Below, one piece after another: positions 6,868 to 57,889 of a stretch of 64,000 nucleotides of DNA (position 1 is the stretch's first letter; each line of letters starts with the position of its first letter). Source of the stretch: a virus; IMG/VR virus record IMGVR_UViG_3300002835_000063, positions 1 to 64,000 of that record; one strand, 5' to 3'. The notes beneath the pieces were generated by a model. That model had not been told where the DNA came from, searched no databases, and worked only from the letters and a program-made list of their open reading frames with translations. Position numbers and translations under genes: made by a program.

Positions 6868-7061
6868 CGGTTAAACCTTGGCGGATATAGAGCCTTTACT
6901 ATTCTTAGCCGGATCTCATCCTTTTCGGACTGGCTTTCAGCCTCGTCCAACATTCTCTCAATATCACGTTTGACAGTTTTAGCCATCCACATAATAAATA
7001 GTCCAAACACTGCCAGGCACACTGCCAAGAAAACTAGAGCTATTTGAAGGGCGTCTACCAT
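6864..7061 (-). CDS. Small membrane protein
   Basis: N-terminal TM segment; TATAAT 6 nt before ATG. Confidence 0.65.
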   Translation of the reverse strand: MVDALQIALVFLAVCLAVFGLFIMWMAKTVKRDIERMLDEAESQSEKDEIRLRIVKALYPPRFNR

Positions 7062-7270
7062 GATTTAATTATAGGTCGCCCAGCTAAGACTCAATTAGAA
7101 CTAAAGTTTGCCGTCTTGCATCCACTTGGCAAAAATGGCGTCTGAATCCTTGGCAACTTGCTTACCCTTCTTCCACTGACGAAACGCTACAAACACAACC
7201 AGCCAAAATTGAACGGTTAGTACTGCAAAGACTCCAGCTACAAAAGAGGCCCAGTCCCAGTTAATAACGA

Positions 7271-7654
7271 TCATTTCTCTATCCTCCTACTTATTTTGTA
7301 CTTTTCTAAATCTACTACATCTTTACCAGTTGACTCATAGGTAAGACTGTCGTAACCGGCTTGGACATGGCCAAGACTGTCTACTGACAATTTGATGCCA
7401 GTGTACATTAAAACGGTCATTAAGTCAAGCGTTCCAATTTTTATGCCATACTCTCTGTAAAGATTTTTGGCAAGCATCTCGGCTCTTATCCTTTGGCAGA
7501 TTGCAGGATCTACTCCGGTGCTTTCCTTCTCCCGCTCCTGGAGATCCGCTATACGCTCCTCTAGCGTTCCCAAATCAAATTCAATTTCGTCAAAGGTTTC
7601 TTCAGGACCCAGCAAGCTCCCGAATTCATCGAATCCGTCTTCTTTATCTCTCAT
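7271..7654 (-). CDS. Hypothetical acidic protein
   Basis: 127 aa ORF, AGGA RBS. Confidence 0.65.
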   Translation of the reverse strand: MRDKEDGFDEFGSLLGPEETFDEIEFDLGTLEERIADLQEREKESTGVDPAICQRIRAEMLAKNLYREYGIKIGTLDLMTVLMYTGIKLSVDSLGHVQAGYDSLTYESTGKDVVDLEKYKISRRIEK

Positions 7655-7735
7655 GTTTATATCCTAGTAAAAAGTCAAGATCTCGTCAAACCCTTATAAT
7701 TTTAGAGGGGAGAGGCTAATTCCAGGAGCCTCCAA

Positions 7736-8062
7736 GTGCCATCTAAGACAGTTATAAACAAAACTGCCAAGAAAAATAATTCCAAGTTTCTATTGACAAT
7801 AGACATCTTTTGGCGTATAGTAGCCACCTTTATTGCCTCCGCCCTAGCAGTTATTGGAGCGGGCTCCATAATTGGTATCGATGTCTGGCTATCGGCTGCC
7901 CTCGGAGGTTTGCTTGCTGTAGCCAAGGTTGTAGAAAAACTTGCCCTCGCTTTCCTAGAGGACGGAAAGATTAGCCGCGCTGAAGTCAACATGATCTTCA
8001 GCCAAGTTGTCCGTCTAAAAGAAGCAGGGGACGATCAGAATGCGTCTAAGCCTAAGAAGTAG
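7736..8062 (+). CDS. Membrane protein, holin-like; paralog of 37483-37770
   Basis: Two TM segments; [12 protein letters not shown]...[13 protein letters not shown]. Confidence 0.6.
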
Positions 8063-12149: not shown

Positions 12150-13064
12150 ATGACTTGGTTGATGCCATTTCCTGAAAAGACAATCACTGGCGAGTACGGC
12201 ACTCTCTCTGCCTACCGTCGCAAGAACAAGATGCAGCCACACTCTGGCACCGACTGGGCACCTCCAGGTTCGAACAAAGGTAAGACTTTAATTCCTGCTA
12301 TCGCAGATGGAACTATCAAGCTTGTACAATGGAGCAAAGTGTTAGGCTGGGTCGTAGTTCAGACCGCCGCAGATAAAGACGGCAAGATTTGGTTTATCGG
12401 ATATTGCCACCTAGCCTGCAAAAAGTGCGGCATTAATTGCAAAGGCGCTCACGGACCAGAGATTGCGCTAAGCGTTAAAGTCGGCGACAAAGTAACAGCT
12501 GGTGATGTCACTCACGGCATGACGATCGGGAACACGGGCAATGCTTCAAGTGGGGCTCATTTGCATGCAACTCTTGGCAAGGCAGTTAAGGACGTCTTTG
12601 GTCCAACCACTTCAAAGTCCGATCTTAAGAAAGCAATCATCGCTAACAGCGGAGGCGCAGTTGCCCCAAAGGTTGACAAGAAGACTGCTAAAGCAATCAT
12701 CAAAGGCGAAGCTCCAAAGGCAGCAGAACCAGTTGCTACTGAAGTAAAGCCCTTAGTTGCCGATGAGTCGAAAGAACTAACTGTTGACGACTGGAAGAAG
12801 TTCCAAGAAATTCTAAAGCGCGATCACGGCTACACTGGCGCAATCGATGGCAACCCAGGAAAGCAAACTTGGATGGCCATTCAGCGCTCAGTTGCTTCCC
12901 ACGGATACTCAGGTCCAATTGATGGAGATCCTGGAACTAACAGCTATAAGGGCGTCCAAAAGCGCCTAGTTGCTCGCGCTGACTACGAAGGTCGTATTGA
13001 TGGCTCATGGGGGCCCCAGACTATTGCAGCCCTCCGTGGAGCAATCAACTCAAACAAGTATTAA
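12150..13064 (+). CDS. Endolysin: M23 peptidase plus peptidoglycan-binding repeats
   Basis: HSGTD, GNTGNASSGAHLH; three YxGxIDGxxGxxT repeats. Confidence 0.88.
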   Translation: MTWLMPFPEKTITGEYGTLSAYRRKNKMQPHSGTDWAPPGSNKGKTLIPAIADGTIKLVQWSKVLGWVVVQTAADKDGKIWFIGYCHLACKKCGINCKGAHGPEIALSVKVGDKVTAGDVTHGMTIGNTGNASSGAHLHATLGKAVKDVFGPTTSKSDLKKAIIANSGGAVAPKVDKKTAKAIIKGEAPKAAEPVATEVKPLVADESKELTVDDWKKFQEILKRDHGYTGAIDGNPGKQTWMAIQRSVASHGYSGPIDGDPGTNSYKGVQKRLVARADYEGRIDGSWGPQTIAALRGAINSNKY

Positions 13065-13081: not shown

Positions 13082-13120
13082 GAGAAACCCCCGACAAAAC
13101 ATCGGGGGCTTTTCTTATTT
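13082..13120. terminator. Terminator between convergent genes
   Basis: CCCCCGA/TCGGGGG stem with A-rich and T-rich flanks. Confidence 0.75.
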
Positions 13121-13133: not shown

Positions 13134-14264
13134 TTAGTTAGTTACAGCCAAAACTGCAGTAGCAACGTTGCTTGGGTTCCAAACTCCATTACCGCCAACA
13201 CTTCCACTTAGAACACATTGGCCTACAGTCTTGAAAATAACTTTTGGTCCAACTACCTCACATACTACTGGAGTAGTTGAAGTCACCACAGCCGGAATCT
13301 CGAAACCATTAGCTATAGACTTGCTGGTTGCATTGAAGTGCGCAAACCAGGGCAATCCAATTGGTCCCCAAGTTTTAAGTGAATAGCTTCTCATAAATCT
13401 AGAGAATCCAGCCCCTTGATCGAACTTAGTTGCTAGTTGAATGTTTAAGGTTGTAGCTGATGGATCTACAGTCGGGTAGGTGCTCGGATCAGCAACTACG
13501 CTTCCGCAGGTCCCAAGTTGAGTCTCACCAACGTTTGCGTCATAGATGCTCTCAAAGCAGGTAGTTGATGCAGTACCGCCACCAATTACTCGTGGAAGTA
13601 CGACGTTGGTTGCACCAGTGTTGGCATAAGTCCAGTACTGAGTCGAGTTACAGCCATAGGCATTACATGCAGCCACGTTAATGATGTACATAAATCCAGG
13701 ATCGACTGACAGCGAAGTAAAGGTGTCAGACAAAACAAGCTCGGCCTTAGTGGCGTTTATTGGATTGCCTCTGGTATCAGACTTCCAGTAAGTAACTTTG
13801 TAGCCATACAGCGGAGCACCGCCATTGTTAGGGCTTGGAATCCACGCTACGTCAACCTGAGTACTTGATACAACGCTAGAGGTAGCAATTAGAGGAGCTA
13901 CTGGAATTGATGCAGCAGAAACAGCATTAGACAGGACCGAGGTAGCAACTGGCACACCATTCTTTAGGGTTGCTACAGCAAACCTGTACTGCTGAGTAAA
14001 GCCCAAAGCCCTAGTCGAGAAGGTGCATTCTTTGGCAGCTGCTCTTAAAACTACACAAGTTTGCCCGCCCGGCTGAGCAGTCACTAAATAGCCAGTGACG
14101 CCAGAAACGTCACTAGGGGCCTTCCAGCCCACTTTGTAGCCCAGATCAACTCTGTAGTAGGCGCTGACATCTAGGGCCGCCTGAGAGCTTCCTAGGGCCG
14201 CTACAGGGCTAAATACGCCCATTGAAAGGGCTAAGGTAGTTAGAACTACCGCTGTCTTCTTCAT
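13134..14264 (-). CDS. Secreted fibronectin type III domain protein
   Basis: Signal peptide; two FN3-like repeats (VGWKAP...VTGYLV; VAWIPSPNNGGAPLYGYKV). Confidence 0.75.
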   Translation of the reverse strand: MKKTAVVLTTLALSMGVFSPVAALGSSQAALDVSAYYRVDLGYKVGWKAPSDVSGVTGYLVTAQPGGQTCVVLRAAAKECTFSTRALGFTQQYRFAVATLKNGVPVATSVLSNAVSAASIPVAPLIATSSVVSSTQVDVAWIPSPNNGGAPLYGYKVTYWKSDTRGNPINATKAELVLSDTFTSLSVDPGFMYIINVAACNAYGCNSTQYWTYANTGATNVVLPRVIGGGTASTTCFESIYDANVGETQLGTCGSVVADPSTYPTVDPSATTLNIQLATKFDQGAGFSRFMRSYSLKTWGPIGLPWFAHFNATSKSIANGFEIPAVVTSTTPVVCEVVGPKVIFKTVGQCVLSGSVGGNGVWNPSNVATAVLAVTN

Positions 14265-14293
14265 TCTGTACCTTTCTAGTTCAGATACAGAAA

Positions 14294-14326
14294 AAGATAA
14301 TGGACTCTTTTTAGTTTGTCAAGTCC
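14294..14326 (-). promoter_or_regulatory. Sigma-A-type promoter sharing 16 bp with 35183-35198
   Basis: GGACTTGACAAACTAA; TTGACA-17-TATCTT. Confidence 0.7.
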
Positions 14327-14340
14327 AAATTAAAAGATTT

Positions 14341-14655
14341 TTAAAACCTGGGGGGCGGTGGAGGACCGTCTGGATCCTCATCTTCGTTTCTAGCCCGGTC
14401 TACCGCGTCATCTAGCAGCCTGGCAACGTTTTCTACGATGTCCTCGAAAGAGTCATTTATACGAACAATCTGCCTGTCTCGCATAAACATTTCAATCATT
14501 TCGGCTTTATACATAATCTTGACTAAAGTCTTTTGGTCCCTCTTGCTCAAGTTCTTAAGTAGTGGATTAGCAAGAATCATCATCTGTATTTCATAGAGGT
14601 GACGCTGTTTTTGGAGTTTTCTTAGCTGGCGCTCAGTGGCTCGAATGCTGCTCAT
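14341..14655 (-). CDS. Hypothetical protein
   Basis: 104 aa ORF in a packed operon. Confidence 0.65.
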   Translation of the reverse strand: MSSIRATERQLRKLQKQRHLYEIQMMILANPLLKNLSKRDQKTLVKIMYKAEMIEMFMRDRQIVRINDSFEDIVENVARLLDDAVDRARNEDEDPDGPPPPPRF

Positions 14656-14878
14656 ATTCCTCTATCTTTTCCATAACCCTATAGCAGGTTACATTAACTC
14701 GTACAGAATACCCTAGCCCATAAGGCTGAACATACAAAACCTCAGGGTTATTAGATGTTTCTACGTATTTAACCTTACCAGAAATGCACTCTGGATCTCC
14801 CCAAAACTTAGGGGAAGCAAAATGAACAAAGCTATCTACTAGCTCTGGAATTTGCTCCCTGTCTATAGGGGTTCCCAT
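14633..14878 (-). CDS. Hypothetical protein
   Basis: 81 aa ORF. Confidence 0.6.
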   Translation of the reverse strand: MGTPIDREQIPELVDSFVHFASPKFWGDPECISGKVKYVETSNNPEVLYVQPYGLGYSVRVNVTCYRVMEKIEEYEQHSSH

Positions 14879-14886
14879 AAGATCCC

Positions 14887-15078
14887 CTAAAGATATTTTT
14901 TAGTGATTTTTGTTGAAAGCTCTGATACCCAGTCCTTAGTTGGACCCTCTAAATCTGAATTTTTTTCAACAGCCGAAGATAGTTCATGTAGAGCTTCTGC
15001 AATGCCAGCCTTAAAGCCCTCGTCCCATTTCTTTTGGTCCGCAGCCTGAGATGCGAACATAGGTGGATGATTAGTCAT
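14887..15078 (-). CDS. Hypothetical protein
   Basis: ATG at 15078 with AGGAG RBS. Confidence 0.6.
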   Translation of the reverse strand: MTNHPPMFASQAADQKKWDEGFKAGIAEALHELSSAVEKNSDLEGPTKDWVSELSTKITKKYL

Positions 15079-15117
15079 AGCGCTCCTAAACAAACGTATG
15101 ACCAGTCTACCAGCGAG

Positions 15118-15297
15118 CTATTTCTCTGATTTTTCCCAGGGCAAAAACAGTAACCACTTACTGTCTTGATTAAAAACAAAGTATTTATTCTCAGGCTTGC
15201 TGTAGCTGATAATCTCGTGCTGCCTTAGCCATTCCAAAACTTCTTCGCGTCCCTCTTGACGAAGGCTTTCGTAAGAGACGTTTACTTTTCTGGCCAT
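15118..15297 (-). CDS. Hypothetical 59 aa protein
   Basis: Hand translation MARKVNVSYESLRQEGREEVLEWL...; fills the gap. Confidence 0.55.
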   Translation of the reverse strand: MARKVNVSYESLRQEGREEVLEWLRQHEIISYSKPENKYFVFNQDSKWLLFLPWEKSEK

Positions 15298-15569
15298 TCC
15301 CCGTCCAATACCATCATGGCAATAATGCTGTAGTTAGCTAGATCTAGAAAAGAGTCTTTTAGCGATTCGTTTTCTGGCGTGACTCCCGAATCGATGAGAT
15401 GGTTGATCCGTGAAACCTTGTCATGTATACGTACACGGAGACCATTAAGAGGACCACCGGGAGAGCGACTAATGTTAGTGGGACCGTAATCATTTTGTTT
15501 TTTGACCAAAACGTCTTCAGCGAATTGATAATGCTTGTGCGCGATTTTTCTGAACTCATCTAGATTCAT
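15282..15569 (-). CDS. Nucleotide-modification-associated domain 1 (DUF1599-like) protein
   Basis: KKQNDYG, RIHDKVSRI, ESLKDSFLDLANYSII. Confidence 0.8.
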   Translation of the reverse strand: MNLDEFRKIAHKHYQFAEDVLVKKQNDYGPTNISRSPGGPLNGLRVRIHDKVSRINHLIDSGVTPENESLKDSFLDLANYSIIAMMVLDGEWPEK

Positions 15570-15834
15570 CTTTCCTCAATATTTCTTTTACTAAATCTTT
15601 TGGGCTTGTTTTTACTTCGCTGGGCAATGCCCCGTATTTGTAAAGCAACTTAAGCAGTAGCGTAGCATACAAAAGCTCGTCTAGAAAAGCGACCCCCGGA
15701 AACCAGTCAAAGGGATCTGGCAGAATAATTAGACCAATCAAACCAAGCGTTAAACTCTTAACCCACCACGGGGATCGCTTGTATTGAGCAATGTATGGTT
15801 TAGCTATTCTTTTCGTCCGCTGACCAAGAGTCAT
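15556..15834 (-). CDS. Membrane protein, YkvA/DUF1232-like
   Basis: LPDPFDWFPGVAFLDE resembles PxDxIPxxGxLDD. Confidence 0.55.
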   Translation of the reverse strand: MTLGQRTKRIAKPYIAQYKRSPWWVKSLTLGLIGLIILPDPFDWFPGVAFLDELLYATLLLKLLYKYGALPSEVKTSPKDLVKEILRKDESR

Positions 15835-16297
15835 CGTCCCATACCCACCCTTGTTCAATCCACTCTACTTCAGCTCTTCCTTGTGCGCAGTCATAGCAAA
15901 TGTGCCAAAGCTTTTCGTCTCTGACAGCTCCTAAGTACATACCGCCAGCAGAAGCAACATTGTCTTCAAAATCTAAATGACGATTGCAAACGGCGCATTG
16001 AAACATTTTTTTGCTAGTGAAATCTAAATCGCCACTTTTATCCAATTCAACACGAAATGTTATGCCGTCATACTGAGACTCATACTCAATCAAAGCAGCA
16101 ATAGAGTAGCCGTCTGCATATGCTTCGTTATAAAGATCTTCTTCGTCTTTGGTGGCTATTCTAAAAGAAGTCTCGCCCTCAGCCGCATATGGAATAATTT
16201 CATCCCGCTTCAGCCAAAGCCATTCAACATAAACTTCTCCATCCAGCGGCTCGTAATGCTCAAACCTATAAAGAAATCTTTTTTCGGAGTCTTCCAT
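15800..16297 (-). CDS. Hypothetical protein with Zn ribbon
   Basis: CAVC...CYDC; leaderless TAGTGT. Confidence 0.65.
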   Translation of the reverse strand: MEDSEKRFLYRFEHYEPLDGEVYVEWLWLKRDEIIPYAAEGETSFRIATKDEEDLYNEAYADGYSIAALIEYESQYDGITFRVELDKSGDLDFTSKKMFQCAVCNRHLDFEDNVASAGGMYLGAVRDEKLWHICYDCAQGRAEVEWIEQGWVWDDDSWSADEKNS

Positions 16298-16332
16298 ATC
16301 TACACACTAATACTTACCCACGTGGGCGTCTA

Positions 16333-16686
16333 CTAAAAAAGCTTTTCGTCTTTTTCGATGTAGCCAGGGTATTCTCTGCGGTCCCTAATAATTACGTCTG
16401 AAGCATGAAGATAGGTAGCAGCAACAATTCTTAAGCCGTCAACTTCTAGGGCACCAGGATCTTCCTCAGCCAAATACTTTGCAACCATCTTTGCGTCGCT
16501 AGCTTTGATCTGGAACTCCTCCCAGAAAACTTCCCTGGCGTGTCTAAATCCTTCGGCGTACCCAGTATTGAAAGAAGCTTTGCTGTCCTCTTCTAACGTA
16601 GCCGGATTAACCCTAGGCTTAGCTGGTTTTTCAAATAGGCCCTCTTCGTCAAAAGAGCTGCCACAACCGCAGTTTCCACCGCACAT
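16333..16686 (-). CDS. Hypothetical protein
   Basis: AGGAG RBS; N-terminal CGGNCGC. Confidence 0.65.
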   Translation of the reverse strand: MCGGNCGCGSSFDEEGLFEKPAKPRVNPATLEEDSKASFNTGYAEGFRHAREVFWEEFQIKASDAKMVAKYLAEEDPGALEVDGLRIVAATYLHASDVIIRDRREYPGYIEKDEKLF

Positions 16687-16713
16687 AAATTCTCCTAAGT
16701 CTTTTTAACTATT

Positions 16714-16956
16714 CTAGCTAGCGTCTGAATCCATGTTTTTGAGCAGATGGATGCAGTATTCGAGGCCATCTTCCCACTCAAGATTTGGCTCAACTTTAAG
16801 GGCCCCCCGAGCGTCTGCTATTTCTTTCTTAAGAACGTCTATCAAAAGTTCCCTAAATTGTAGCTCCCCCTCCTTCATCACAACCTTTACTGCAAGCTTC
16901 GTTGCTTCATCTAGGTCCAAAACAATCTCCCGATCAAATTTGTCAAAATACGACAT
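16714..16956 (-). CDS. Hypothetical protein
   Basis: 80 aa ORF, coupled start. Confidence 0.6.
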   Translation of the reverse strand: MSYFDKFDREIVLDLDEATKLAVKVVMKEGELQFRELLIDVLKKEIADARGALKVEPNLEWEDGLEYCIHLLKNMDSDAS

Positions 16957-17051
16957 CAGTATATAAACCTGTCTTTATCGTTGTTTTTCTTTGGAAATAT
17001 AAAGTTTTTTACTTTCTTATACGCCTTCTCGAGGTAGTAAAGAATAATCAT
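16956..17051 (-). CDS. 31 aa microprotein coupled to the carbamoyltransferase
   Basis: MIILYYLEKAYKKVKNFIFPKKNNDKDRFIY; overlaps both neighbours by 1 nt. Confidence 0.6.
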   Translation of the reverse strand: MIILYYLEKAYKKVKNFIFPKKNNDKDRFIY

Positions 17052-18487
17052 TAGCTTATGATCTCCCTGCCATAATATTTGGTCCATTCTTTCACATCAC
17101 TAGCGTCGTTTATTATAGGCTGCCCTTTAATATTCAAACTAGTGTTTAATAGCACTGGTACACCGGTAAGGCTATACCACTTCTGTAATACCTGATATAG
17201 ACCGGGATGCTGCCGGGCAGTTACAGTCTGGACCCTGGCAGTTCCGTCGGCGTGGACCACACTAGGAATTAACTCTGGCTTAAGACATCTAGGCGTGTAC
17301 TGCATGTAAGGCGAAGTGTAGTTCATGTCAAACCACTCGCTAGCATGTTCCTCCATAACCACCGGAGCAAACGGTCTAAACAACTCCCGCTTCTTGATTA
17401 GGTTTACCTTGTCTTTAATATCAGGATCTCTCGGATCCGCCAAGATACTTCGGTTTCCCAATGCCCTCGGACCATACTCAGCTCTACCAGATGCTACTGG
17501 CGCTATCTTGTCGACAATAAGGGCGTTTAGTATTTTCTCTACTGGATAGTCTCCCCCAACCCCATGACCTAAGTACGGCCCCTGCCAATTCAAATGCTTG
17601 CCATACAAAGCTGCAGCAGCCCCTAAAGCCGACCCAGCGTCCCCTGGATTAGGCATGATCCAAACATTTTTAAATATGTTCCGCAGCAGGGTGTTAGCTT
17701 TGCTATTCAAAGCACAGCCGCCCATAAAGACTAGATTCTTTTTTCTAGTAATACTTTTTGCAAACCCCATGAATTCCATGAGACGATCCTCAAATACTTT
17801 TTGTACTGCAGCTGCTAAATCAAATCTAGCCTGACCTTCTACCGGCTCTTTCCAGTCAATAATGCCAGAGTGGAAGTTATATTTTTGACGATCAAAGACT
17901 GGAAAATATTGTCTGACTTTTTCATAATATCTATTGGCATCACCATAGGCTGCCATACCCATCATGATGTACTCTTCTTCATTTGGCTTAAGACCAATTA
18001 GTTTGGTGAAAGCAGAGTAAAAAAGACCGAAGCTAACTGGATATTTTTGCTCCCAGACTAGGTTAATCTTGTCGCCCTCCCCCACCCACACAGTGGAAGT
18101 CTGGAATTCTCCGATGGCGTCTAGCACGACAATAAGGGCGTCTGCCATGTTGGACGTGTAATACCCAGCAGCAGCATGAGACTGGTGGTGCTTAAAATCT
18201 TTTACTGGAATTCCCCTAAGCAATCGGCTCGACTTAAAGTATGGTTTTCCTCCCCCCAACCCACCATGCCTAGCAATCCTTAGCTTCTTTAGCCAGTAGT
18301 CCTCGTAGTAGGCAATCTTGTCGGGGGTCCCATAAGTAAGGGCATCTGCTATAAGAGCATCGTTAGTGAACCAGTCGTTCTTTTCTTTGCTGTAACGCTC
18401 GGCATGACCAGCAAATAGAACTTCGCCATTTTCAATAAGACAAACTGCAGCATCGTGCGTTGTCTCATTTATGCCAAGAATTTTCAT
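17051..18487 (-). CDS. Carbamoyltransferase (NodU/CmcH family)
   Basis: HDAA, HHQSHAA, DAIGE, EYGPRALGNRSIL, RELFRPFAP, LNTSLN. Confidence 0.95.
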   Translation of the reverse strand: MKILGINETTHDAAVCLIENGEVLFAGHAERYSKEKNDWFTNDALIADALTYGTPDKIAYYEDYWLKKLRIARHGGLGGGKPYFKSSRLLRGIPVKDFKHHQSHAAAGYYTSNMADALIVVLDAIGEFQTSTVWVGEGDKINLVWEQKYPVSFGLFYSAFTKLIGLKPNEEEYIMMGMAAYGDANRYYEKVRQYFPVFDRQKYNFHSGIIDWKEPVEGQARFDLAAAVQKVFEDRLMEFMGFAKSITRKKNLVFMGGCALNSKANTLLRNIFKNVWIMPNPGDAGSALGAAAALYGKHLNWQGPYLGHGVGGDYPVEKILNALIVDKIAPVASGRAEYGPRALGNRSILADPRDPDIKDKVNLIKKRELFRPFAPVVMEEHASEWFDMNYTSPYMQYTPRCLKPELIPSVVHADGTARVQTVTARQHPGLYQVLQKWYSLTGVPVLLNTSLNIKGQPIINDASDVKEWTKYYGREIIS

Positions 18488-18505
18488 TTTGGCTACTAAC
18501 TCAAG

Positions 18506-18700
18506 CTATTTAACTGGTCTGGCGTCAATGATGAAGTTGTACATGTACTTGGTTTCCATCATTGTTGTCGATTCAGCAATATCCCCTGACCCAAAAGTCT
18601 GGTGAAACTTTCTTAAAATCTTTAGAATTCGTTCCCGCTCAGTGGCTACACCTTTTTCAAATGCAGCCATTTCCTCTGGGGTTCCTTCAAACTTAGCCAT
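18506..18700 (-). CDS. Hypothetical protein
   Basis: FEKGVATERERI motif; AAGGAG RBS before the ATG at 18700. Confidence 0.6.
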   Translation of the reverse strand: MAKFEGTPEEMAAFEKGVATERERILKILRKFHQTFGSGDIAESTTMMETKYMYNFIIDARPVK

Positions 18701-18971
18701 TAAATATCTCCTTAACGCAGCACCCGTCGCACCCATGAACAGTATTTAAAGCAATATCGTCTGGGTCCGGATGTCCAACACCGTGAGGGCACATTCTTTC
18801 CATAATATGGCGATCTTGCCTCCACCTCTGAGGAAATCCTAACATATGATGATCAGAGGGGTTATGGAGAGTGCAGTAGTCATTCTTGCACTTATTACTT
18901 GCATGGACGTTTACAATTACATGATTGTAGTCATCTACCCAGGAATTTTTGCCAAGATATTTAGCGGACAT
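18693..18971 (-). CDS. Cys/His-rich hypothetical phage protein
   Basis: CTLHNPSDH...ERMCPHGVGHPDPD...HGCDGCC. Confidence 0.7.
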   Translation of the reverse strand: MSAKYLGKNSWVDDYNHVIVNVHASNKCKNDYCTLHNPSDHHMLGFPQRWRQDRHIMERMCPHGVGHPDPDDIALNTVHGCDGCCVKEIFNG

Positions 18972-19249
18972 TATGCGCTGTGAAGCTCTCCCATAGTCCA
19001 AACAACTTCTTCATATCCATCTCGAGAGATGATTCTAAAGCGAGCGCCGTCTGGAATCTCTACGATAGCTAGAGTTGATCCGCCATCGCCACGGTTGTCT
19101 CCAGCCTCAAACGAAGCAATAAGACGCTCGTCAGCTCGGTTTACGTCTGACACCTTCATGTATGGAACAGTCTGCAGCTCCGGGAAAAGAGTCTTCTGAC
19201 GCTCAGACAAAGTAAACCCGTGCGAGCAGTGGTTAACTAATAGTTTCAT
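18971..19249 (-). CDS. Hypothetical phage protein
   Basis: LAIVEIPDG...DGYEEV; AGGAG RBS. Confidence 0.7.
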   Translation of the reverse strand: MKLLVNHCSHGFTLSERQKTLFPELQTVPYMKVSDVNRADERLIASFEAGDNRGDGGSTLAIVEIPDGARFRIISRDGYEEVVWTMGELHSA

Positions 19250-19403
19250 TTTTTCTCCTGTTTTTTAGCTTCTGCCACATAAAGCTTAGTGCTAATAGCA
19301 TCTGGCAATTTCCGAACTATTATATCCAAGTCGTTTTTGTTGTCGCTCTTCCAGAGAGGAGAATTCTCTTTTTTAGTGTAAACGATCCAAGTAGTCACAG
19401 TGG

Positions 19404-19631
19404 TTACCTATTTAGTTTTAACTTTCCGCTTTTTAGGTCTGCTTCAATTAACGCCCAGAGTTCTGCTCCGTTAAGAGTATCTACCTTTTTCTTTTTTAGA
19501 ATGACATTAGGCCTATCGCAGTTCCTTGGATACAAAGCCTTGTGATAGTGATACTGACAAAGCCGCTTTGCTTTAATCTGTTTCTCGCAGCCATCAAACT
19601 CGCAATGGCCTTCTCTTGTCATTATTGGCAT
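19404..19631 (-). CDS. Small Zn-finger protein
   Basis: CEFDGC...LCQYHY. Confidence 0.6.
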   Translation of the reverse strand: MPIMTREGHCEFDGCEKQIKAKRLCQYHYHKALYPRNCDRPNVILKKKKVDTLNGAELWALIEADLKSGKLKLNR

Positions 19632-19973
19632 TTATTCTCCGTTACTGACATCCCTAAACCGGCTATTTGGAAATAACTCCCTCATTCTAGCCCTTCGCTT
19701 TTTGGCCACTTCAGGATCTTCAACGTAAGGTTCAATAGGGGCGTCTAAATCTTCGTACTCTTTCTCAATCCTCCGGCGAGCTCCTCCGATATCATCCCCG
19801 ATTTCTTCATGCAAATCTAAGTGTGACAAAGCTTCCCGGGGAGTTTTTAGAGAGGTAAACCCAAAAATCTCGTCCCCATCAGGTAGTGCCAAAGAGCAAC
19901 CACAGCACTCAATAAATCCACCCACGTGCTCGTAGATGTAAACATCCGAGCTGCCAAATCTCTCAAAACTCAT
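19632..19973 (-). CDS. Hypothetical phage protein
   Basis: MSFERFGSSDVYIY...ECCGCSL. Confidence 0.7.
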   Translation of the reverse strand: MSFERFGSSDVYIYEHVGGFIECCGCSLALPDGDEIFGFTSLKTPREALSHLDLHEEIGDDIGGARRRIEKEYEDLDAPIEPYVEDPEVAKKRRARMRELFPNSRFRDVSNGE

Positions 19974-20124
19974 GCGGTTGCCTTTCTAATAACTTCCAAC
20001 ACTAACTGCTCGGCCATTTCCTCGCTAAACCCCTGGGCTATAAGCTGATTTCTCATACCGCCCATAATCTCACCATACTGAGTGACGGCGTCTATCATCT
20101 TTGAAATATCTTCTGGATTCACGT

Positions 20125-20433
20125 TTATCTCCTACTAAACACTACTTCAAAACCAAAGTCTTCAACAGTCTGTATTGCATCCTTTAGTCTGCCAACTTCT
20201 TTTTCAGCTACAGATACCCCGTACTCGTAGCCCTCTTGAAACTTTCTAAGAGCCCATCGATCTAGCTCAGGGCTGGTGCAACTTTGCACTTTATAACTGT
20301 AGACAGTCCCGCAGTCGCCGCACTGCCAATCTTCCTTATTCACTTTTGCTTTCTTTTTATTGTGCTGACGCTTTCTGTATTCACCAATTTTTATGGCCTC
20401 TTCAAGTTCATTAAAAGATTCGTGACGCTTCAT
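20125..20433 (-). CDS. Hypothetical protein
   Basis: WQCGDCG; coupled start. Confidence 0.6.
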   Translation of the reverse strand: MKRHESFNELEEAIKIGEYRKRQHNKKKAKVNKEDWQCGDCGTVYSYKVQSCTSPELDRWALRKFQEGYEYGVSVAEKEVGRLKDAIQTVEDFGFEVVFSRR

Positions 20434-20672
20434 TACAGCTCTCCCCTAATTCTTTCAATTGTTAGCAGGTGTCTTTCAGTCAACGTCTCTTTACTGGCTA
20501 ATGCAAACCAAGCAGTTTTATCTATAAAACATTTTGGGCAAGTGCGGGGAGACACAATTCCCCAAGCACCCATCCTCGGCGGGAAGTCCCAGCCCCGACT
20601 GAACCCCTCCTCAGATGTCAGCTCAGCTTCGGTGTCGCACACCTCGCACCAGTGCAAAATTTTTTCACTCAT
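20433..20672 (-). CDS. Zn-ribbon hypothetical protein
   Basis: CEVC...CPKC. Confidence 0.65.
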   Translation of the reverse strand: MSEKILHWCEVCDTEAELTSEEGFSRGWDFPPRMGAWGIVSPRTCPKCFIDKTAWFALASKETLTERHLLTIERIRGEL

Positions 20673-20837
20673 TTATTAGTAACTTCTTCCTACCCAAAAC
20701 GTATATACGTGCCTACCCCAAAAGAAGTCTACGCCTTTTCTTTTAGGGTGCCACTCAAAGCATATCCCGTAATGCTTCTCTACTGCAAATCGACTTGGGG
20801 GGTAATGTCTAAAATTTATGCGAAACATAAATTTATT

Positions 20838-20966
20838 TTATCTATATTTTGCGCTAAATAGTTGATAGAACAATGCACCAATAACCAACATCACTGGCAG
20901 CATTCCAACTAATATCACAACTTGAACTACGGTCCAATCGATCTTTTTCCATAAATACTTAATCAT
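20838..20966 (-). CDS. 42 aa single-TM protein
   Basis: Hand translation MIKYLWKKIDWTVVQVVILVGML... Confidence 0.5.
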   Translation of the reverse strand: MIKYLWKKIDWTVVQVVILVGMLPVMLVIGALFYQLFSAKYR

Positions 20967-21073
20967 TACTTCCTCTTTCCCCATCTTTCAATCGCAAACC
21001 AAATACCTAAAATTGCAAAAGCAACATAGTAGGCCCAGGCAGATCCGAATAGTTCCCGCATAAGGGCGTCCAT
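20966..21073 (-). CDS. 35 aa single-TM protein
   Basis: Hand translation MDALMRELFGSAWAYYVAFAILGIWF... Confidence 0.5.
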   Translation of the reverse strand: MDALMRELFGSAWAYYVAFAILGIWFAIERWGKRK

Positions 21074-21223
21074 TATTTTTCGTCCCTGTCAGGAATCTCA
21101 TTGGTGATTTTGAAAAAAGCTAAATCGTTGGCTGCTTCTTTTGCTAGCTTTCCGCCCATGTCGGTTAGCATCTTTGCTACCTCGATCTTTGCAAAGATCT
21201 CAGCTAGCTGATCAGTGGAATAT

Positions 21224-21568
21224 TTATTCTTCTTGTCCATCAGTCTCTACCATTTTCCTTATTAGGTGGATCGTCATTTTGGCGTCCTCCTCAGAATCTA
21301 GCAGGTTCTCCTCAAACTTGTCAAGTATTCCTAAAAATCTTTTTTCAGCCATCTTCTCTCCCAGTTCATACCAGGATTCTCCAGCTGCATCAGTAAGGGC
21401 GTCTATCGCATTAAGCGCCTCTTGCTTCTTAAGGATGGCCTTGGCAATGCTGACTTCAAAGATTTCCATATCCCCCTCCCCAAAGGTGGAAAACGAAGCC
21501 CCCCTAAAGCCCGAAGGCTCCTTCAAGGGATCTTCTACATACTCAAAGTCATTTAGTGCCATGCCCAC
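21224..21568 (-). CDS. Hypothetical acidic protein
   Basis: 114 aa ORF. Confidence 0.6.
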   Translation of the reverse strand: MGMALNDFEYVEDPLKEPSGFRGASFSTFGEGDMEIFEVSIAKAILKKQEALNAIDALTDAAGESWYELGEKMAEKRFLGILDKFEENLLDSEEDAKMTIHLIRKMVETDGQEE

Positions 21569-21582
21569 AGCCTAGCACAGGT

Positions 21583-23067
21583 TTACCGGGATTTTGCTCT
21601 AGTAAATTCGTTATAAAAACTTTCGGCAGCATGCCTGTGCCAGTGAGCCCCAAAGTGGGGGTGGCCAAGAGCAGAGTCGGTACCTGCAAAATATTCATCA
21701 GGAAATTCTTTTTTAATTTCTGCATGGCACAAAGTTCCGCAGGTGCATTCAACCCCCGGATTAATGTGACTAGATAAGCACAGCTCAAAATCAGCATAGT
21801 TGTCAAAAAATATTTCTTTAATACTATTTTCTGATAGCTTAATTCTGGAATAGTCAAAATTGTGATCGTATAAATTAAAAAATTTCTCAAATCTTGTGTC
21901 TGGCTCAAGCTGAGAGTCTATAACTAATCCGTTAAATACAGGATCCCAAGTGGCCCAAAATAATTTTATGTCCGCTGCCCTACAGTATTGCTCTAAATAT
22001 CTAATGCTTTTCATTGCGTCATATATTGCTAAATCATCGGAAAAAACTTTTCTATAGTCATATGGAAGTTTAATTAATTTATTATTTTTTTCTTTTTCTA
22101 CTCCCAAATATACAGTTTGAAAAAATTTTTTATTCGATTCACTACTTTCTTTTTCTATATTTGTAGGAACTTTATTTTTGTTATTTAATTTTTCTGCATA
22201 AAACACACCATCTACCGGCACATAAAATCTTTTATAGTCAGGGAAAAGACAAAAAAGATACTCCGGGTTCCCATATGTTTCTACATATTTAAAAATAGAA
22301 TTTACTATTTGACCAGTAGAAGCACCAGACTTACCTATATTTGTATGATCTAAATTTAAAAGTTTGGCCACCTGAGTCGCCCAAATGTTTTCTATAGAGA
22401 CTCCCACTCCGTATGTTACCGAGCAGCCAGCAAATAATAGGGGGGTTTTTTCTAATTCTTTTTTTGATCTAAACCCGTTCGAATTATTTTCATATATTCT
22501 TTTTGGATCATCTTCAATAATTTTTTTTGAGTTGTATTCTGTCTCAGAATAAAAAGTTTTTCTTGCATTCAAAGTTAATTTGTAGTTACTTTTTTCACTA
22601 AACACCGAACTGTCTATTTGTTCTTTAATTTTTTCATTAAATTTTAATTTTCTGAGTTTAGTTATTCTATCTAAAATTGGCTCCATAAACTCATCAACAG
22701 AGTCTAAGCTTGAACATTTATATAAAACAAAATTATTATTTAAATTAAGTTGATCGTTAATTTCTTGCGAAAAGTCATCGTCTTTCTCCGAACAATCAAA
22801 AATAACATCGTGCCCCATATATCCACTTGAATTTAACCACTCGTGGTCGTCACCAATAGTTATGCTTAATTTTTCATTATTGAAATATTTATTGTTTATT
22901 TTCCAAAAGTTTTGGTTATTTAATTGAGCTTCTGGAAAGTCTTTTAACTTTTTTACATAGACTATGTGTATTCTTATGTCTTTCCCGTAGCCAGGTAGAC
23001 AAGTAAATTTGTCTACTACAGCTTTACCTATAGGACCATACCCAAATATACAAGCACTTAAAATCAT
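21583..23067 (-). CDS. Rossmann-like N-terminus fused to an SGNH-hydrolase-like domain
   Basis: IFGYGPIG; NSNGFRS...FAGCSVTYGVG...NIGKSGAS...HPHFGAHWH. Confidence 0.6.
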   Translation of the reverse strand: MILSACIFGYGPIGKAVVDKFTCLPGYGKDIRIHIVYVKKLKDFPEAQLNNQNFWKINNKYFNNEKLSITIGDDHEWLNSSGYMGHDVIFDCSEKDDDFSQEINDQLNLNNNFVLYKCSSLDSVDEFMEPILDRITKLRKLKFNEKIKEQIDSSVFSEKSNYKLTLNARKTFYSETEYNSKKIIEDDPKRIYENNSNGFRSKKELEKTPLLFAGCSVTYGVGVSIENIWATQVAKLLNLDHTNIGKSGASTGQIVNSIFKYVETYGNPEYLFCLFPDYKRFYVPVDGVFYAEKLNNKNKVPTNIEKESSESNKKFFQTVYLGVEKEKNNKLIKLPYDYRKVFSDDLAIYDAMKSIRYLEQYCRAADIKLFWATWDPVFNGLVIDSQLEPDTRFEKFFNLYDHNFDYSRIKLSENSIKEIFFDNYADFELCLSSHINPGVECTCGTLCHAEIKKEFPDEYFAGTDSALGHPHFGAHWHRHAAESFYNEFTRAKSR

Positions 23068-23069
23068 AA

Positions 23070-23690: not shown

Positions 23691-23694
23691 GCCA

Positions 23695-24315: not shown

Positions 24316-24324
24316 AGTAAAATT

Positions 24325-24833: not shown

Positions 24834-24834
24834 T

Positions 24835-25723: not shown

Positions 25724-25737
25724 ATATTCACGCTATC

Positions 25738-28624: not shown

Positions 28625-28642
28625 GGCTCTATGTTATCTGAT

Positions 28643-38758: not shown

Positions 38759-41804
<3,046 letters not shown>

Positions 41805-41832
<28 letters not shown>

Positions 41833-42221
41833 AGTAGATCTAGCCTCTCTTTTACTTGTTCTACGTCGTCTGGTGTTCCTGTAATTTCTACACGATACAG
41901 CAAAGGAACGCCAGTTTTTGCTGAAATCATCTCGGCGGCTTTACAGTAGTGCTCTCCAAAATTGGTGTTACCAGTTCCGACAACACCACGTAACAAATCC
42001 CTATTAGGTTTAAAGTTAAGAAACTTTCTAACCTGTTTAGGTACTGTGTGATTATCGTTCCCGCCGCCGTAGGTGGGAACAATTAGCACATATGGCTTGT
42101 AGGCCATAAATTGCCCTTCGCCCTCCCATCGAATTGGAATCCGACGAGCAGGCAATCCTAACTTCTCAACAAACCGATGGGTATTGTTTGAGACGTTGGA
42201 AAAATAAATAATTTCATACAC
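41805..42221 (-). CDS. nrdI: Flavodoxin-like NrdI
   Basis: [25 protein letters not shown]. Confidence 0.96.
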
Positions 42222-42222
42222 T

Positions 42223-42441
42223 TTATGAAAGTGTAGCTAGTTTGTCTGGCCTAAAGCCACTCCAGTGATCATCTCCGGCCACAACTACGGGCGCAGCCGT
42301 GTATCCGAGCTCTCTAACCATAGCCAAAGCTTCTTGATCAGCACTTAAATCAATTTCTTGATATTGAATTTCATTTTTGGTCAACAACCTCTTAGTGCTA
42401 TCGCATTGAACGCAGGCTGGAAGAGTGTATACAGTGACCAT
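42223..42441 (-). CDS. nrdH: Glutaredoxin-like NrdH
   Basis: CVQC, WSGFRPD. Confidence 0.96.
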
Positions 42442-54578: not shown

Positions 54579-54582
54579 TAAA

Positions 54583-55197: not shown

Positions 55198-55844
55198 AAT
55201 ATGAAATACCTTACGAGAATATTGTTTATTTTCCAGAAATTGTTCCGGACGTAGATAACATAATTTCTTCAATAGAGTCCACAAATAGTCTAGCTATAAC
55301 TAAATGGGAAATTTGGAATGCTTATGGAGAATCAGACGGGGATCCATATGGCGAAGTAAAATACATGAGCAAACATCTTTTAGATGCAGAGACTAACCAA
55401 AAAACTGTAGAAACCTCAAAATATATAATTTCTACGCTAATAAGTTCAATGTCATTAGCAGCCGAAACTTACGCAAAAATATATAACATTGATTCTAACC
55501 TTTTGCAGTATGCAATTGATGCATTAAATATGCCTGGCACAAAATATGGAATAAACAAATATTTTGAGAATCAATACATGGGACCACACGTTGACTGGAA
55601 TGAGTACAACTCCGACATTACTTATACCATTGTTGTTTACTTGAACGATGATTACGAAGGCGGGGAGCTATTTTTTGTGGATCCGGACATAAACATAAAA
55701 ATAAAACCTAAAAAGGGAAGCATAGTAATGTTTCCATCTGTCCTGCCATATCTGCATCAATCCTGTGAGATTACTAAGGGAAGAAAAATGCTGATAACTC
55801 ATCACTGGAAAAATGATTCACTATCAAGAAACAGGACTTACTAA
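55188..55844 (+). CDS. 2OG-Fe(II) oxygenase
   Basis: HVD...YLNDDYEGGEL...HQS...K. Confidence 0.9.
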   Translation: MEIKYEIPYENIVYFPEIVPDVDNIISSIESTNSLAITKWEIWNAYGESDGDPYGEVKYMSKHLLDAETNQKTVETSKYIISTLISSMSLAAETYAKIYNIDSNLLQYAIDALNMPGTKYGINKYFENQYMGPHVDWNEYNSDITYTIVVYLNDDYEGGELFFVDPDINIKIKPKKGSIVMFPSVLPYLHQSCEITKGRKMLITHHWKNDSLSRNRTY

Positions 55845-56698
55845 TGTCAATTAATGTAAATCTTATTGAAGTTTTTTCTAAAGAAGATCTCTATTCTAGA
55901 CTAAACGAAATTTTAGATGTTCAAACTAAAAATTCCATTGTTGGGATTAGAGGAGTTAGGCTTACTGAAGAAGAGCAGCTACAGCTAGCCAGAGATCTCG
56001 GAGACATAGCTGGCTGGTTCCCAAACAACACCGACAAATTTAATCACAAATATATTGAAAATCACTCTGCCAACCCATCGGTGGGAGCCTCTTCAAATAA
56101 CGAATTAATTTTAAGCTGGCACCTAGAGCGCGTCGATTATGACGAATATCTTTTGTTGGTGGCTGGCGTTTGGAACATGAGACTTTTTAATTGTGATCCA
56201 GAATCGGGTAAAACATATTTTATAGATTCCAGAAAAGTGTTCCAAAAAATTTACAATGAAGATGAAAAGAATTTTTTGCGAGGCTGCAAAGCCTACTGGA
56301 CAGAACAAACGCCAAGCGGCAATACACGCACTAATTATGTAAAGATTGTTCAGCCCCATTGGAAGACCGAAGAAGAACAAATTAGAGTTGAGCTACACCA
56401 TATGGCTGCAATTAAATTGTACAAAATAAACGATAATGACCCAACTTCAGAAGAAGCGGCCGCCTTTGAGTCATTAATGAAAAGATTTTCTCAAGAAATA
56501 GCAAACAACGAAGATTTAAGAATAATTCACAAATGGAAAGAGGGAGACATCCTCATTCCAGATCTTTTCTCTCTAGCGCACGCCGTCACGGGCGGATTTG
56601 ACCCCAAAGACAGAGAGTTTACCGGATACTGGTGCTATACGGCGTCTCCCTCTAGTGTTGGAGAAGACAATGTCCCGCCATCTTGGAGGGGTGAATAA
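55844..56698 (+). CDS. TauD/TfdA-family dioxygenase
   Basis: WHLE, GKTYFID, HKWKEGDILIPD...AH...R. Confidence 0.8.
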   Translation: MSINVNLIEVFSKEDLYSRLNEILDVQTKNSIVGIRGVRLTEEEQLQLARDLGDIAGWFPNNTDKFNHKYIENHSANPSVGASSNNELILSWHLERVDYDEYLLLVAGVWNMRLFNCDPESGKTYFIDSRKVFQKIYNEDEKNFLRGCKAYWTEQTPSGNTRTNYVKIVQPHWKTEEEQIRVELHHMAAIKLYKINDNDPTSEEAAAFESLMKRFSQEIANNEDLRIIHKWKEGDILIPDLFSLAHAVTGGFDPKDREFTGYWCYTASPSSVGEDNVPPSWRGE

Positions 56699-56700
56699 GC

Positions 56701-57171
56701 TTGAACGATTTAAATCCAACAAATGAAGTATATGTAAATCAATACAAAGAAGCTGTAAAACAAAATAAAGCAAATTCTTATATGCTCACTATTGCCAGAG
56801 ACGGCGAATCACCAGTCAGGTCAATTTATTTTTATGATAATGCAGTAGACGCCACTATTGGATATGAAGCATACCAAGACTGGGGATTTGCTAAAGACTA
56901 TCTAACGGTGGAGCTATATGAGCCAACTGGAAGGGTTCACAGCAAAGTTTTGCGCAGGCCTCGCGGTGGAGAGTGCACTTTTGAGCGGGCACAGTACTAC
57001 CAAATTTCTGACATAATAAACGCCGTTAAGCCAAAAGTAGACGAGGAAGCATTCAACTACCTAGCCTACGAGTTTGCTAAGCTATTCTCGAAGGACAACC
57101 AAAGGTTTAATCCAGAGCGATTTTTAGAGACGCTGGGATATACAGGAGAAATAAATGACAGATCTGTCTAA
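56701..57171 (+). CDS. Hypothetical protein
   Basis: 156 aa ORF; DNQRFNPERF motif. Confidence 0.65.
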   Translation: MNDLNPTNEVYVNQYKEAVKQNKANSYMLTIARDGESPVRSIYFYDNAVDATIGYEAYQDWGFAKDYLTVELYEPTGRVHSKVLRRPRGGECTFERAQYYQISDIINAVKPKVDEEAFNYLAYEFAKLFSKDNQRFNPERFLETLGYTGEINDRSV

Positions 57172-57889
57172 GATCGAGACTACCCCGACAGAGTTTGGCG
57201 ATAAGGGATTTATCAAAGAAGATATTGTTTTTTACAATAATTTTCTAACCCAAGAAGAGTGTGAGACCCTGGTTAGAGTATTCGAGGACGAAGAGCAACC
57301 CTGGAGCATGTCAGCTTTTTTTGAGTCGTACGGCATGAGTATTATGCCAGAAGACCCGATTTTAGAGCGATACGGGTTACCTAGAGATTACTTTGGGAAA
57401 CTAGCAGATAGGCTACATAAGGTAGTAGAAGATGCCCACGAGCGTCCAGTAAAATCAGTTTCGTCTCATGCCCAGAAGTGGCAAATAGGGGCGTTTGCTC
57501 CATTTCATTCAGACAACACCGACATGGATGGAAACCCGTCTGCCTGGGAGAAAAGCAAACTTGTCTGCCTCTTGTACATAAATGACGACTATGAGGGCGG
57601 AGAGCTAGACTTTAGGGATCACGATATCTCGATCAAACCGGTGGCGGGCCAGTTAATTACTTTCCCCGGCGGATTTAATAACATCCACCAAGTGTTGCCA
57701 GTGAGGGGCTCTACGAGACATACCATTGGAGCTTTCTGGGATTATGCCGAATCGGTCTACTCCGAAGAGCGCATGAAGCAATGGGAAGATGAAATCCAAA
57801 AGGTCCGAGAAGAGCAAAAAGTCATGCAGGACGAGTGGAAAGAAATGGTTGCCAAGGGGGTCCACCCCACGGATCCGGGCGCTCAATAG
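57155..57889 (+). CDS. 2OG-Fe(II) oxygenase
   Basis: HSD...YINDDYEGGEL...HQV...RH. Confidence 0.9.
   Translation: MTDLSKIETTPTEFGDKGFIKEDIVFYNNFLTQEECETLVRVFEDEEQPWSMSAFFESYGMSIMPEDPILERYGLPRDYFGKLADRLHKVVEDAHERPVKSVSSHAQKWQIGAFAPFHSDNTDMDGNPSAWEKSKLVCLLYINDDYEGGELDFRDHDISIKPVAGQLITFPGGFNNIHQVLPVRGSTRHTIGAFWDYAESVYSEERMKQWEDEIQKVREEQKVMQDEWKEMVAKGVHPTDPGAQ

Follow-up and report, generated by a model that had tools for sequence, protein, structure and literature searches.

The stoperators of Cluster A mycobacteriophages, described for L5 (gp71) and TipsytheTRex, are asymmetric 13-bp sites present in ~15 to 20 or more copies per genome, in promoters as well as inside transcription units, with an orientation that strictly follows transcription (PMC9283540, PMC6550527). 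They use short intergenic spaces, and the solved Cluster A repressor, a monomer of the gp71 family, joins an N-terminal helix-turn-helix (HTH) to a Stoperator domain, two DNA-binding domains in one small protein (PMC9283540). Its phages are temperate, and it confers immunity. Here, we describe a 16-bp word with a comparable organization in an uncultured lake phage. The DNA analyzed, hereafter the window, is the first 64 kb (positions 1 to 64,000) of IMG/VR virus record IMGVR_UViG_3300002835_000063 (G000), which is linear, 108,880 bp long, 44% GC, and ~65% complete according to CheckV. The word resembles stoperators in its asymmetry, its copy number, its presence in promoters and inside transcription units, and its transcription-dependent orientation in an actinobacterial phage. 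It also has a small candidate reader with two DNA-binding-like domains, whose own gene is ringed by sites. It differs from stoperators in sequence and in location: the sites lie mostly in coding sequence, in a single frame, instead of short intergenic spaces, and they concentrate in an accessory operon, with a few other loci, whereas stoperators are spread over both arms. The carriers also differ, being uncultured low-GC phages of 135 to 165 kb with no lysogeny module among the annotated genes, and no homology was detected between the candidate reader and gp71, the likeness being one of sequence features.

Other known systems share part of these properties. KorB, the global repressor of plasmid RK2 with 12 OB operators, is likewise a small HTH protein whose many operators are dispersed, some lying in promoters and others at a distance, and the best structural matches of the candidate reader, although weak, are KorB/ParB DNA-binding domains. 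However, OB sites are palindromic, dimer bound, and neither locked in orientation nor embedded in genes, and KorB has a ParB-type CTPase domain that the candidate reader lacks. Start-associated sequences (SAS) and extended SAS of Cluster K actinophages are likewise phage-private conserved words at gene starts, but they lie upstream of the start codon and include the ribosome-binding site, whereas the word described here lies downstream of start codons, deep in genes, or in promoter spacers. Chi, FtsK-orienting polar sequences (KOPS), and SpoIIIE recognition sequences (SRS) are strand-polarized, overrepresented words tolerated inside genes; they consist of 5 to 8 bp and are genome-wide and oriented by replication or translocation, in contrast to a 16-bp word that is regional and oriented by gene direction. 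Unlike the crossover sites of serine recombinases (res, hix, and att), the word has no inverted half-sites around a crossover dinucleotide, and the recombinase gene associated with it also occurs in its absence. On balance, we lean toward reading the copies as operator- or stoperator-like sites of a phage repressor.

Enrichment, orientation, and conservation of the word

Because G000 encodes WhiB (37827 to 38156 of the window) and an NrdH-NrdI-NrdE-NrdF cluster (38759 to 42441), it is predicted from gene content to be a phage of Actinobacteria; whiB serves as a marker of actinobacterial hosts for lake phages (PMC10914622). IMG/VR relatives have GC contents of 40 to 47%. One of them, G006, is a complete genome of 154,192 bp with direct terminal repeats; its 56- to 92-kb segment (~36 kb) has no counterpart in G000, the remainder of which matches G006. 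Two other complete genomes, G007 and G008 (135 kb each), are both devoid of the word. Genes were called by open reading frame (ORF) heuristics and corrected by hand where relevant. Searches of a phage collection by megablast with positions 16 to 31 kb and by tblastn with a 789-residue protein returned no match, as did Rfam and tRNA scans of the window, and a literature search for the motif strings returned chance matches to primers only.

The sequence CAATARGGGCGTYTA has 17 matches with at most two mismatches, compared to 0.49 expected from dinucleotide shuffles. Shuffling of synonymous codons in every ORF of the whole 108.9-kb record left 0.47 matches with at most one mismatch on average and never more than 3 (300 shuffles), compared to 10 in the actual sequence. 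The core GGGCGTC occurs 14 times on the + strand and twice on the - strand, with 3.4 occurrences expected in total. A preliminary description based on the sequence had reported this strand count, which was reproduced, together with exact or consensus copies at 17515, 19733, 24800, and 26710 and copies with one to three mismatches at 12944, 18130, 21058, 21391, 26415, 27503, 28480, 29567, 30209, and 57483, all of which are present. The enrichment on which it relied survives the codon shuffle, the control that it had itself set as a refuting test, and the encoded peptide, [LIV]-D/N-A-P/L/T-I, had been read correctly. The core-only copies that it listed at 7043, 16318, and 30017 score 8.9 bits or less and are indistinguishable from chance.

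On the coding strand, the word has the form xTA-GAC-GCC-CYT-ATT-G, encoding [VIL]-[DN]-A-[PLT]-I. Written as a DNA duplex, the site is ATAGACGCCCCTATTG; as ACGCCCCTAT, it gives unrelated genes of another genome starts of the form M(T)(D/N)API. A logo of 62 nonredundant copies has ~16 informative positions, the most conserved of which form an asymmetric center, ACGCCC. Two degenerate positions are transitions, and position 6 tolerates transversions. The only dyad within the word is a 3-bp TAG/CTA, the flanks are not conserved, and no conserved flanking structure was seen around the sites. The proteins that host the word are unrelated and include a carbamoyltransferase, GT2 and GT8 glycosyltransferases, a glycosyltransferase-like protein, a small serine recombinase, and the products of several small ORFs. 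Because the enrichment persists after codon shuffling and the host proteins are unrelated, the signal is genuine, and neither protein sequence nor codon usage explains it.

From 17.5 to 30.2 kb, the + strand carries every good copy and the - strand every gene, and the copies share one codon phase. The copies at 56845 and 68415 are on the opposite DNA strand, in + genes and in the same frame, so that the word is again on the coding strand. The same switch is found in G006, with 13 copies of one polarity in + genes (12 to 38 kb and 73 kb) and 4 of the opposite polarity in - genes (127 to 137 kb). An exact-pattern scan of IMG/VR revealed ~25 other contigs with clusters of 4 to 9 same-strand copies, and 81 of the 86 in-gene matches in these relatives were on the coding strand in one frame. 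The 1.06 Mb surrounding 78 recombinase homologues contain 143 sites scoring at least 18 bits, all in the sense of the recombinase gene and none antisense. Thus, the orientation of the sites is locked to the direction of transcription and not to a DNA strand. This lock is not forced by coding, because ordinary peptides, for example N-K/R-G-V or I-G/R-A-F, would result from the reverse orientation. Nor does the frame lock need a translational cause, because one of the other sense frames opens with a stop codon (TAR) and another demands the rare peptide K/R-R-P-Y-C/W.

These observations contradict the constant orientation on one DNA strand proposed in the preliminary description, which held that the word keeps its orientation in + genes. 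That claim rested on the weak copies at 12944 (16.5 bits) and 57483 (19.9 bits), neither of which has an open D-A-P-I frame on the opposite strand. Weak matches of this orientation, on the noncoding strand, occur in G000 at 1502, 57483, and 88281 (~0.3 expected) and are absent from the 1.06 Mb of relatives; the synonymous sites at 1502 are not conserved in relatives, and we treat the three matches as lying outside the system. The suggested KOPS, Chi, or packaging roles fare no better, since they predict an orientation linked to replication or packaging rather than one set gene by gene.

Reduced synonymous variation at the sites, for which a test in relatives had been suggested, was found in two protein families. 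In an alignment of 13 nonidentical recombinase orthologues (64 to 95% amino acid identity), nearly every invariant residue outside the motif is encoded by three or four synonymous codons. All 10 rows that span the N-terminal site (30209) have GAC-GCC-CCT there. At an internal site, all 10 rows that have the word read GTA-GAC-GCC-CTT-ATT, and the 3 rows that lack it (including G000) differ in both codons and residues. Among 12 carbamoyltransferase orthologues, a single codon is kept in only 5 of 226 columns of invariant residues; xTA-AAC/GAC-GCC-CTT-ATT at site 17515 is nevertheless kept in 11 of the 12 sequences. The codons of the peptide L-D-A-I, located four codons downstream of site 18130, vary freely in the same 12 orthologues. 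The word occurs whole or not at all, a pattern in the aligned codons that indicates purifying selection at the nucleotide level.

Copies in promoters of relatives and a candidate reader

The candidate reader and every promoter-embedded copy are known from relatives, with none of these copies inside the window. In G006, the gene at 73244 to 73741 encodes a protein of 165 residues and has three copies of the word, located 37 nucleotides (nt) before the ATG, inside the gene, and just past the stop codon. It lies in the 56- to 92-kb segment, and the G000 record therefore lacks it. The family comprises more than 200 homologues (162 to 176 residues), which are unnamed or carry generic "regulator" labels. 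Inspection of 80 loci around the homologues identified 4 or 5 copies within 1.3 kb for every homologue with at least 60% identity and for several at 51 to 56%, whereas homologues at 41 to 55% identity mostly had none. Copies recur at the same places relative to the regulator gene (-34 to -128, +69, ~+210, ~+520, and ~+1100), and site density peaks at this gene and not at the recombinase gene.

Two of these places coincide with promoters. One is the -35 region of the regulator's own promoter, where the upstream copy lies. In ~15 distinct lineages, the copy behind the stop codon fills the spacer of a TTGACA-17/18-TANNNT promoter of the next gene, which encodes an NlpC/P60 peptidase (TTGACA-18-TACCAT in a consensus promoter scan of G006). 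The register of the latter copy relative to the -35 box varies by 0 to 5 nt and its distance to the -10 box from -2 to +8 nt. A word that fills a promoter spacer with the polarity of the intragenic copies appears operator-like, and a signal acting purely at the RNA level would be hard to reconcile with this position.

The AlphaFold model of the regulator (predicted local distance difference test score of 85.7) consists of two four-helix HTH-like domains (residues 1 to 63 and 98 to 165) connected by a 35-residue linker that contains an invariant DAPIP sequence. A Foldseek search of the PDB with this model gave no match at an E value of 0.001 or below, the weak best matches of the domains being those to KorB and ParB mentioned above, and a profile search of PDB sequences gave matches at the level of the HTH only (E values of 0.06 or above). 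By analogy with the Cluster A repressor, the two DNA-binding-like domains predicted in this small protein would suit a 16-bp asymmetric site. The family may thus be the reader of the word, an assignment that we rate just short of an even chance. The readers proposed in the preliminary description were an HTH protein of 79 residues (1872 to 2111), WhiB, and the product of 638 to 1609. Only the HTH protein tracks the motif-bearing genomes, but ~40 other genes do likewise, and the regulator, encoded outside the G000 record, is the better candidate. Subtraction of the gene content of G007 from that of motif-bearing genomes offered no route to the reader, as ~40 genes differ and the comparison does not discriminate between them.

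The regulator orthologue of G007 (L166) contains two identical 15-mers, TTCATCAACGCCCTT, at 97343 to 97357 and 97669 to 97683, 326 bp apart and in different reading frames; this pair may point to an element that acts at the level of DNA and is akin to the ACGCCC core.

Sites and neighboring features in G000

The site cluster of the window is located in a leftward operon of accessory genes (13134 to 30808, - strand), delineated from the ORF list and from Pfam and PHROG matches. Its products include an fn3 protein, a DUF1599 protein, the carbamoyltransferase, two 2-oxoglutarate (2OG)-Fe(II) oxygenases, an N6/N4 methylase, GT2, GT, and GT8 glycosyltransferases, a kinase-like protein, and the small serine recombinase, among others, and intergenic DNA is almost nil. 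A strong bidirectional intrinsic terminator with a 12-bp stem (13085 to 13111) lies between the convergent genes at 12150 to 13064 (+) and 13134 to 14264 (-) and, judged from its sequence, marks the predicted end of the motif-bearing operon. The accessory region as a whole is rich in modification enzymes (2101 to 2805, 15282 to 15569, 17051 to 18487, 23070 to 24315, 25025 to 27938, and 30864 to 32638), with two N6/N4 DNA methylases, a DUF1599 "nucleotide modification" domain, the carbamoyltransferase, at least three glycosyltransferases, and several 2OG-Fe(II)/JmjC oxygenases.

In the direction of transcription, the first site (30209 to 30224, + strand, as for all sites of the operon; 22.5 bits) provides the first codons of the recombinase gene, ATG GAC GCC CCT ACT G on the coding strand. 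The second (29567 to 29582, 25.4 bits; VDATIV) is close to the C terminus of the recombinase, adjoins the start of the kinase-like gene, and forms an indel boundary relative to related genomes. A weak site follows in a gene for 134 residues (28480 to 28495, 14.0 bits; LDANIA), with better copies at the orthologous position in relatives. The glycosyltransferase genes contain sites at 27503 to 27518 (GT8, 24.3 bits; GDAPIA), at 26710 to 26725 (glycosyltransferase-like gene for 249 residues, 26.8 bits; IDAPIV), and at 26415 to 26430 (near the N terminus of GT2, 24.3 bits; VDALIS). Smaller reading frames host four others: codons 7 to 11 of a 52-residue minus-strand ORF at 24675 to 24833 (MAKDKKVNAPIV...) contain the site at 24800 to 24815 (26.3 bits), the minus-strand ORF at 21224 to 21568 that at 21391 to 21406 (23.0 bits; IDALTD), the start of a 35-residue minus-strand ORF (ATG GAC GCC CTT ATG) the weak site at 21058 to 21073 (13.2 bits), and a gene for 113 residues that at 19733 to 19748 (25.2 bits; LDAPIE). 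The carbamoyltransferase gene has two sites, at 18130 to 18145 (25.1 bits; ADALIV) and 17515 to 17530 (22.2 bits; LNALIV). Outside the operon, a site on the - strand (56845 to 56860, 25.4 bits; VDATIG) lies inside the + gene at 56701 to 57171, and another, also on the - strand and in the same frame, starts at 68415 of the record inside a + gene (23.0 bits).

The recombinase (29541 to 30224, 227 residues) has intact YARVST and DRLAR catalytic motifs and a "Recombinase" domain truncated to its start. With regard to a temperate lifestyle, this enzyme was all that was seen in the ~65% complete record. Among the genes of the cluster, that of the recombinase is the best conserved; it carries two or three copies of the word. 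The kinase-like gene (28643 to 29569) is present in some close relatives and absent from others, the indel ending at the copies at 29567 and 30209.

In total, 14 sites of at least 22 bits were counted in G000 (12 in the operon, plus those at 56.8 kb and 68.4 kb), and 17 to 21 sites in G006. The genome-wide distribution put forward in the preliminary description does not hold, since good sites are confined to 17.5 to 30.2 kb and the two isolated positions; clustering is similarly regional in G002, G004, and G005. Within genes, 18 of 110 unique sites begin at codon 3 or earlier and 28 fall within the first 10 codons, the remainder being evenly spread. The word is present at ~33 recombinase loci and absent from ~45 others, at which the recombinase is 62 to 68% identical, as well as from G007 and G008; the system is lineage specific. 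A search of the recombinase-bearing loci without the word for a substitute found none of comparable strength, only words from collagen repeats and orthologous sites.

Other words were noted. The sense-only YRTCTTGCA occurs in a motif-free lineage (L201 to L231, with regulator homologues of ~54% identity) in 5 or 6 copies per 12.5 kb, compared to ~0.2 expected, with none on the other strand; sister lineages may carry private words of their own. CCTTGARTACC is found in 34 sense copies and no antisense copy in recombinase-bearing relatives (L076 to L100) and has one match in G000 (83913). A second abundant word of G006, TGTATTTATTTTTTGT (e.g., at L154 to L161; 17 copies, 15 on the + strand), was not seen in G000 and is probably a promoter class.

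Three reverse copies (1503, 1612, and 1714) had been taken to indicate that the sites may point toward a locus between 1.7 and 7 kb. These copies are not conserved in relatives and have other explanations, leaving the proposed direction unsupported. The 1503 copy encodes a D-[KR]-G-V-C protein motif, at which G005 and G002 have other synonymous sites, the 1612 copy is a Shine-Dalgarno region with its spacer (TTGGAGCGTTTAACATG in G005), and the 1714 copy lies within a 66-nt duplication specific to G000. A trans-acting antisense RNA encoded at 1.5 to 1.9 kb was accordingly rejected. The region has features of its own. A conserved hairpin with a C-rich loop (GUCCUCUCCCCAGU; 1637 to 1672, - strand) lies upstream of the gene at 638 to 1609 (323 residues), with a conserved promoter-like TACAAT box on one side and the ribosome-binding site on the other; its stems differ yet remain complementary in G000, G006, G002, and G005, and it is a possible leader RNA or regulatory structure. 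G000 has two copies of the box GTACAATTG, which includes the -10-like TACAAT (1676 to 1760, - strand), separated by 66 nt. Between the two copies of G006 lies a gene for a 2OG oxygenase of 200 residues, and the region looks like an insertion hot spot behind a conserved promoter.

Proposed repressor sites and alternative explanations

The least probable of the alternatives, to which we assign a negligible chance, is a common hydrophobic-D-A-x-I peptide written in preferred codons. It is refuted by the codon shuffle (0.47 versus 10), by synonymous codons that are fixed only together with the whole word, and by copies in noncoding promoter DNA, and the frame lock follows from the composition of the other frames. 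A signal in the mRNA deserves more attention. GUAGACGCCCYUAUUG could be read by an RNA-binding protein, a nuclease, or a trans-acting antisense RNA that controls translation initiation or decay, and this would account for the location of every intragenic copy on the sense strand and of 16 to 25% of the sites directly behind a start codon. The transitions at the two degenerate positions are compatible with G-U wobble to a single partner, and one antisense-type copy exists in a leader-like region of G000 (1713, 21.9 bits). However, position 6 accepts transversions, the flanks form no conserved structure, and no gene for a conserved complementary RNA emerged: G002, G005, and G006 do not conserve the copies at 1503, 1612, and 1714, and the Rfam and tRNA scans were negative. 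The copies in TTGACA-17/18-TANNNT spacers and in the -35 region of the regulator promoter lie upstream of the likely transcript start. An RNA-level signal is therefore unlikely.

Promoter copies also bear on the explanations that involve the transcription machinery. Loading sites for an elongation factor, of the operon polarity suppressor (ops)/RfaH or Q/AlpA kind and read in the nontemplate strand or the duplex during the passage of RNA polymerase, could render the 17-kb glycosyltransferase-rich operon resistant to termination. RfaH controls operons of this glycosyltransferase/modification kind, the orientation is strictly sense, the sites are concentrated in a long operon of that type, and an AlpA/excisionase-like HTH_17 protein of 79 residues is present in motif-bearing genomes and absent from G007. 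We nonetheless consider such a role improbable: one site per operon would suffice and ~12 are present, no NusG-like gene was seen among the annotated proteins, ~40 other genes share the presence-absence pattern of HTH_17, and a position in promoter spacers at a variable distance from the -10 box (-2 to +8 nt) fits occlusion better. A phage-specific promoter class, used by a sigma-like factor or an activator to produce internal transcripts, has a smaller chance still. The sense orientation, the resemblance of the 3' part of the word, TATTG(T/A), to an actinobacterial -10 box, the copy that replaces the -35 region of the regulator promoter, and very weak Foldseek rows to sigma-A chains speak for it; but the 62 unique sites have no conserved -10 box or start at a fixed distance, transcripts initiated at the many copies just behind start codons would lack the start of that gene, and in ~15 lineages the word sits between a complete TTGACA and TANNNT, that is, in an existing promoter. 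Equally remote is the use of the word by the small serine recombinase for cassette exchange, inversion, or deletion in the accessory region, despite the conservation of that gene, its intact catalytic motifs, its two or three copies, and the gene gains and losses between relatives, some of which end at 29567 and 30209. Recombinase homologues (62 to 68% identity) are present without the word at ~45 loci and in G007, the conserved center (ACGCCC) is asymmetric and lacks a central dinucleotide between dyad half-sites, the densest cluster surrounds the regulator gene and not the recombinase gene, and direct repeats in essential enzyme genes together with inverted sets on both arms would delete or invert large segments.

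The repressor reading retains the core of the preliminary description, a polar, selected, multicopy binding-site system analogous to the L5 stoperators and not imposed by proteins. This core idea fits because the orientation is locked to transcription, relatives have copies in promoters, and synonymous sites are conserved; the genome-wide, one-strand, and locus-pointing aspects were lost. According to the repressor reading, a transcriptional repressor encoded by the phage would bind the word in double-stranded DNA, using it as an asymmetric 16-bp operator. Copies inside sigma-A-type promoters would block initiation, and copies inside transcription units, all in one orientation, would serve as roadblocks or as docking points through which the long accessory operon is silenced or timed. 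Because that operon is almost without intergenic DNA, selection would have written the word into coding sequence, in one frame and at the best-tolerated places (hydrophobic-D/N-A-P/L-I, often in the first codons). The reader would be the two-domain protein of 165 residues whose gene has the densest sites and lies in the ~36-kb segment outside G000.

Two observations fit less well. Nearly all copies are inside ORFs and not in short intergenic spaces, 25% of them within the first 10 codons, and, as regards the assignment of the reader, only R130 and K161 separate the regulator orthologues of motif-bearing genomes from those of motif-free genomes. As to the former, enrichment at the 5' ends of genes (28 of 110 sites within 10 codons) may correspond, by analogy, to the short gaps between genes that stoperators occupy (PMC9283540).

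In its broadest form, the proposal is that of an undescribed silencing or timing system of abundant, uncultured, large (135 to 165 kb) lake actinophages, with a KorB/ParB-like two-HTH reader and ~15 to 20 operator words. This is tentative and, taken as a whole, rather unlikely. If it is true, ~15 to 20 words on the coding strand would switch an entire 17-kb host-modifying operon (glycosylation and modification) together with a lysin promoter, and phages of acI-type Actinobacteria would then exert strict temporal control or have a carrier or lysogeny-like state. To our knowledge, Cluster A mycobacteriophages are the only phages for which experiments have established stoperator-type control, in which one repressor acts at many oriented sites to stop initiation and elongation. 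If the same logic were at work here with another word, probably another reader, and in-frame sites, it would prove to be a strategy that actinophages use in general. The group is widespread, with more than 590 viral contigs carrying the associated recombinase and more than 200 proteins homologous to the candidate regulator, and it would offer a concrete regulator-site pair for phages whose hosts rank among the most abundant bacteria of lakes. The word is also a clear case of a DNA signal that constrains proteins, which bears on annotation and on analyses of evolutionary rates.

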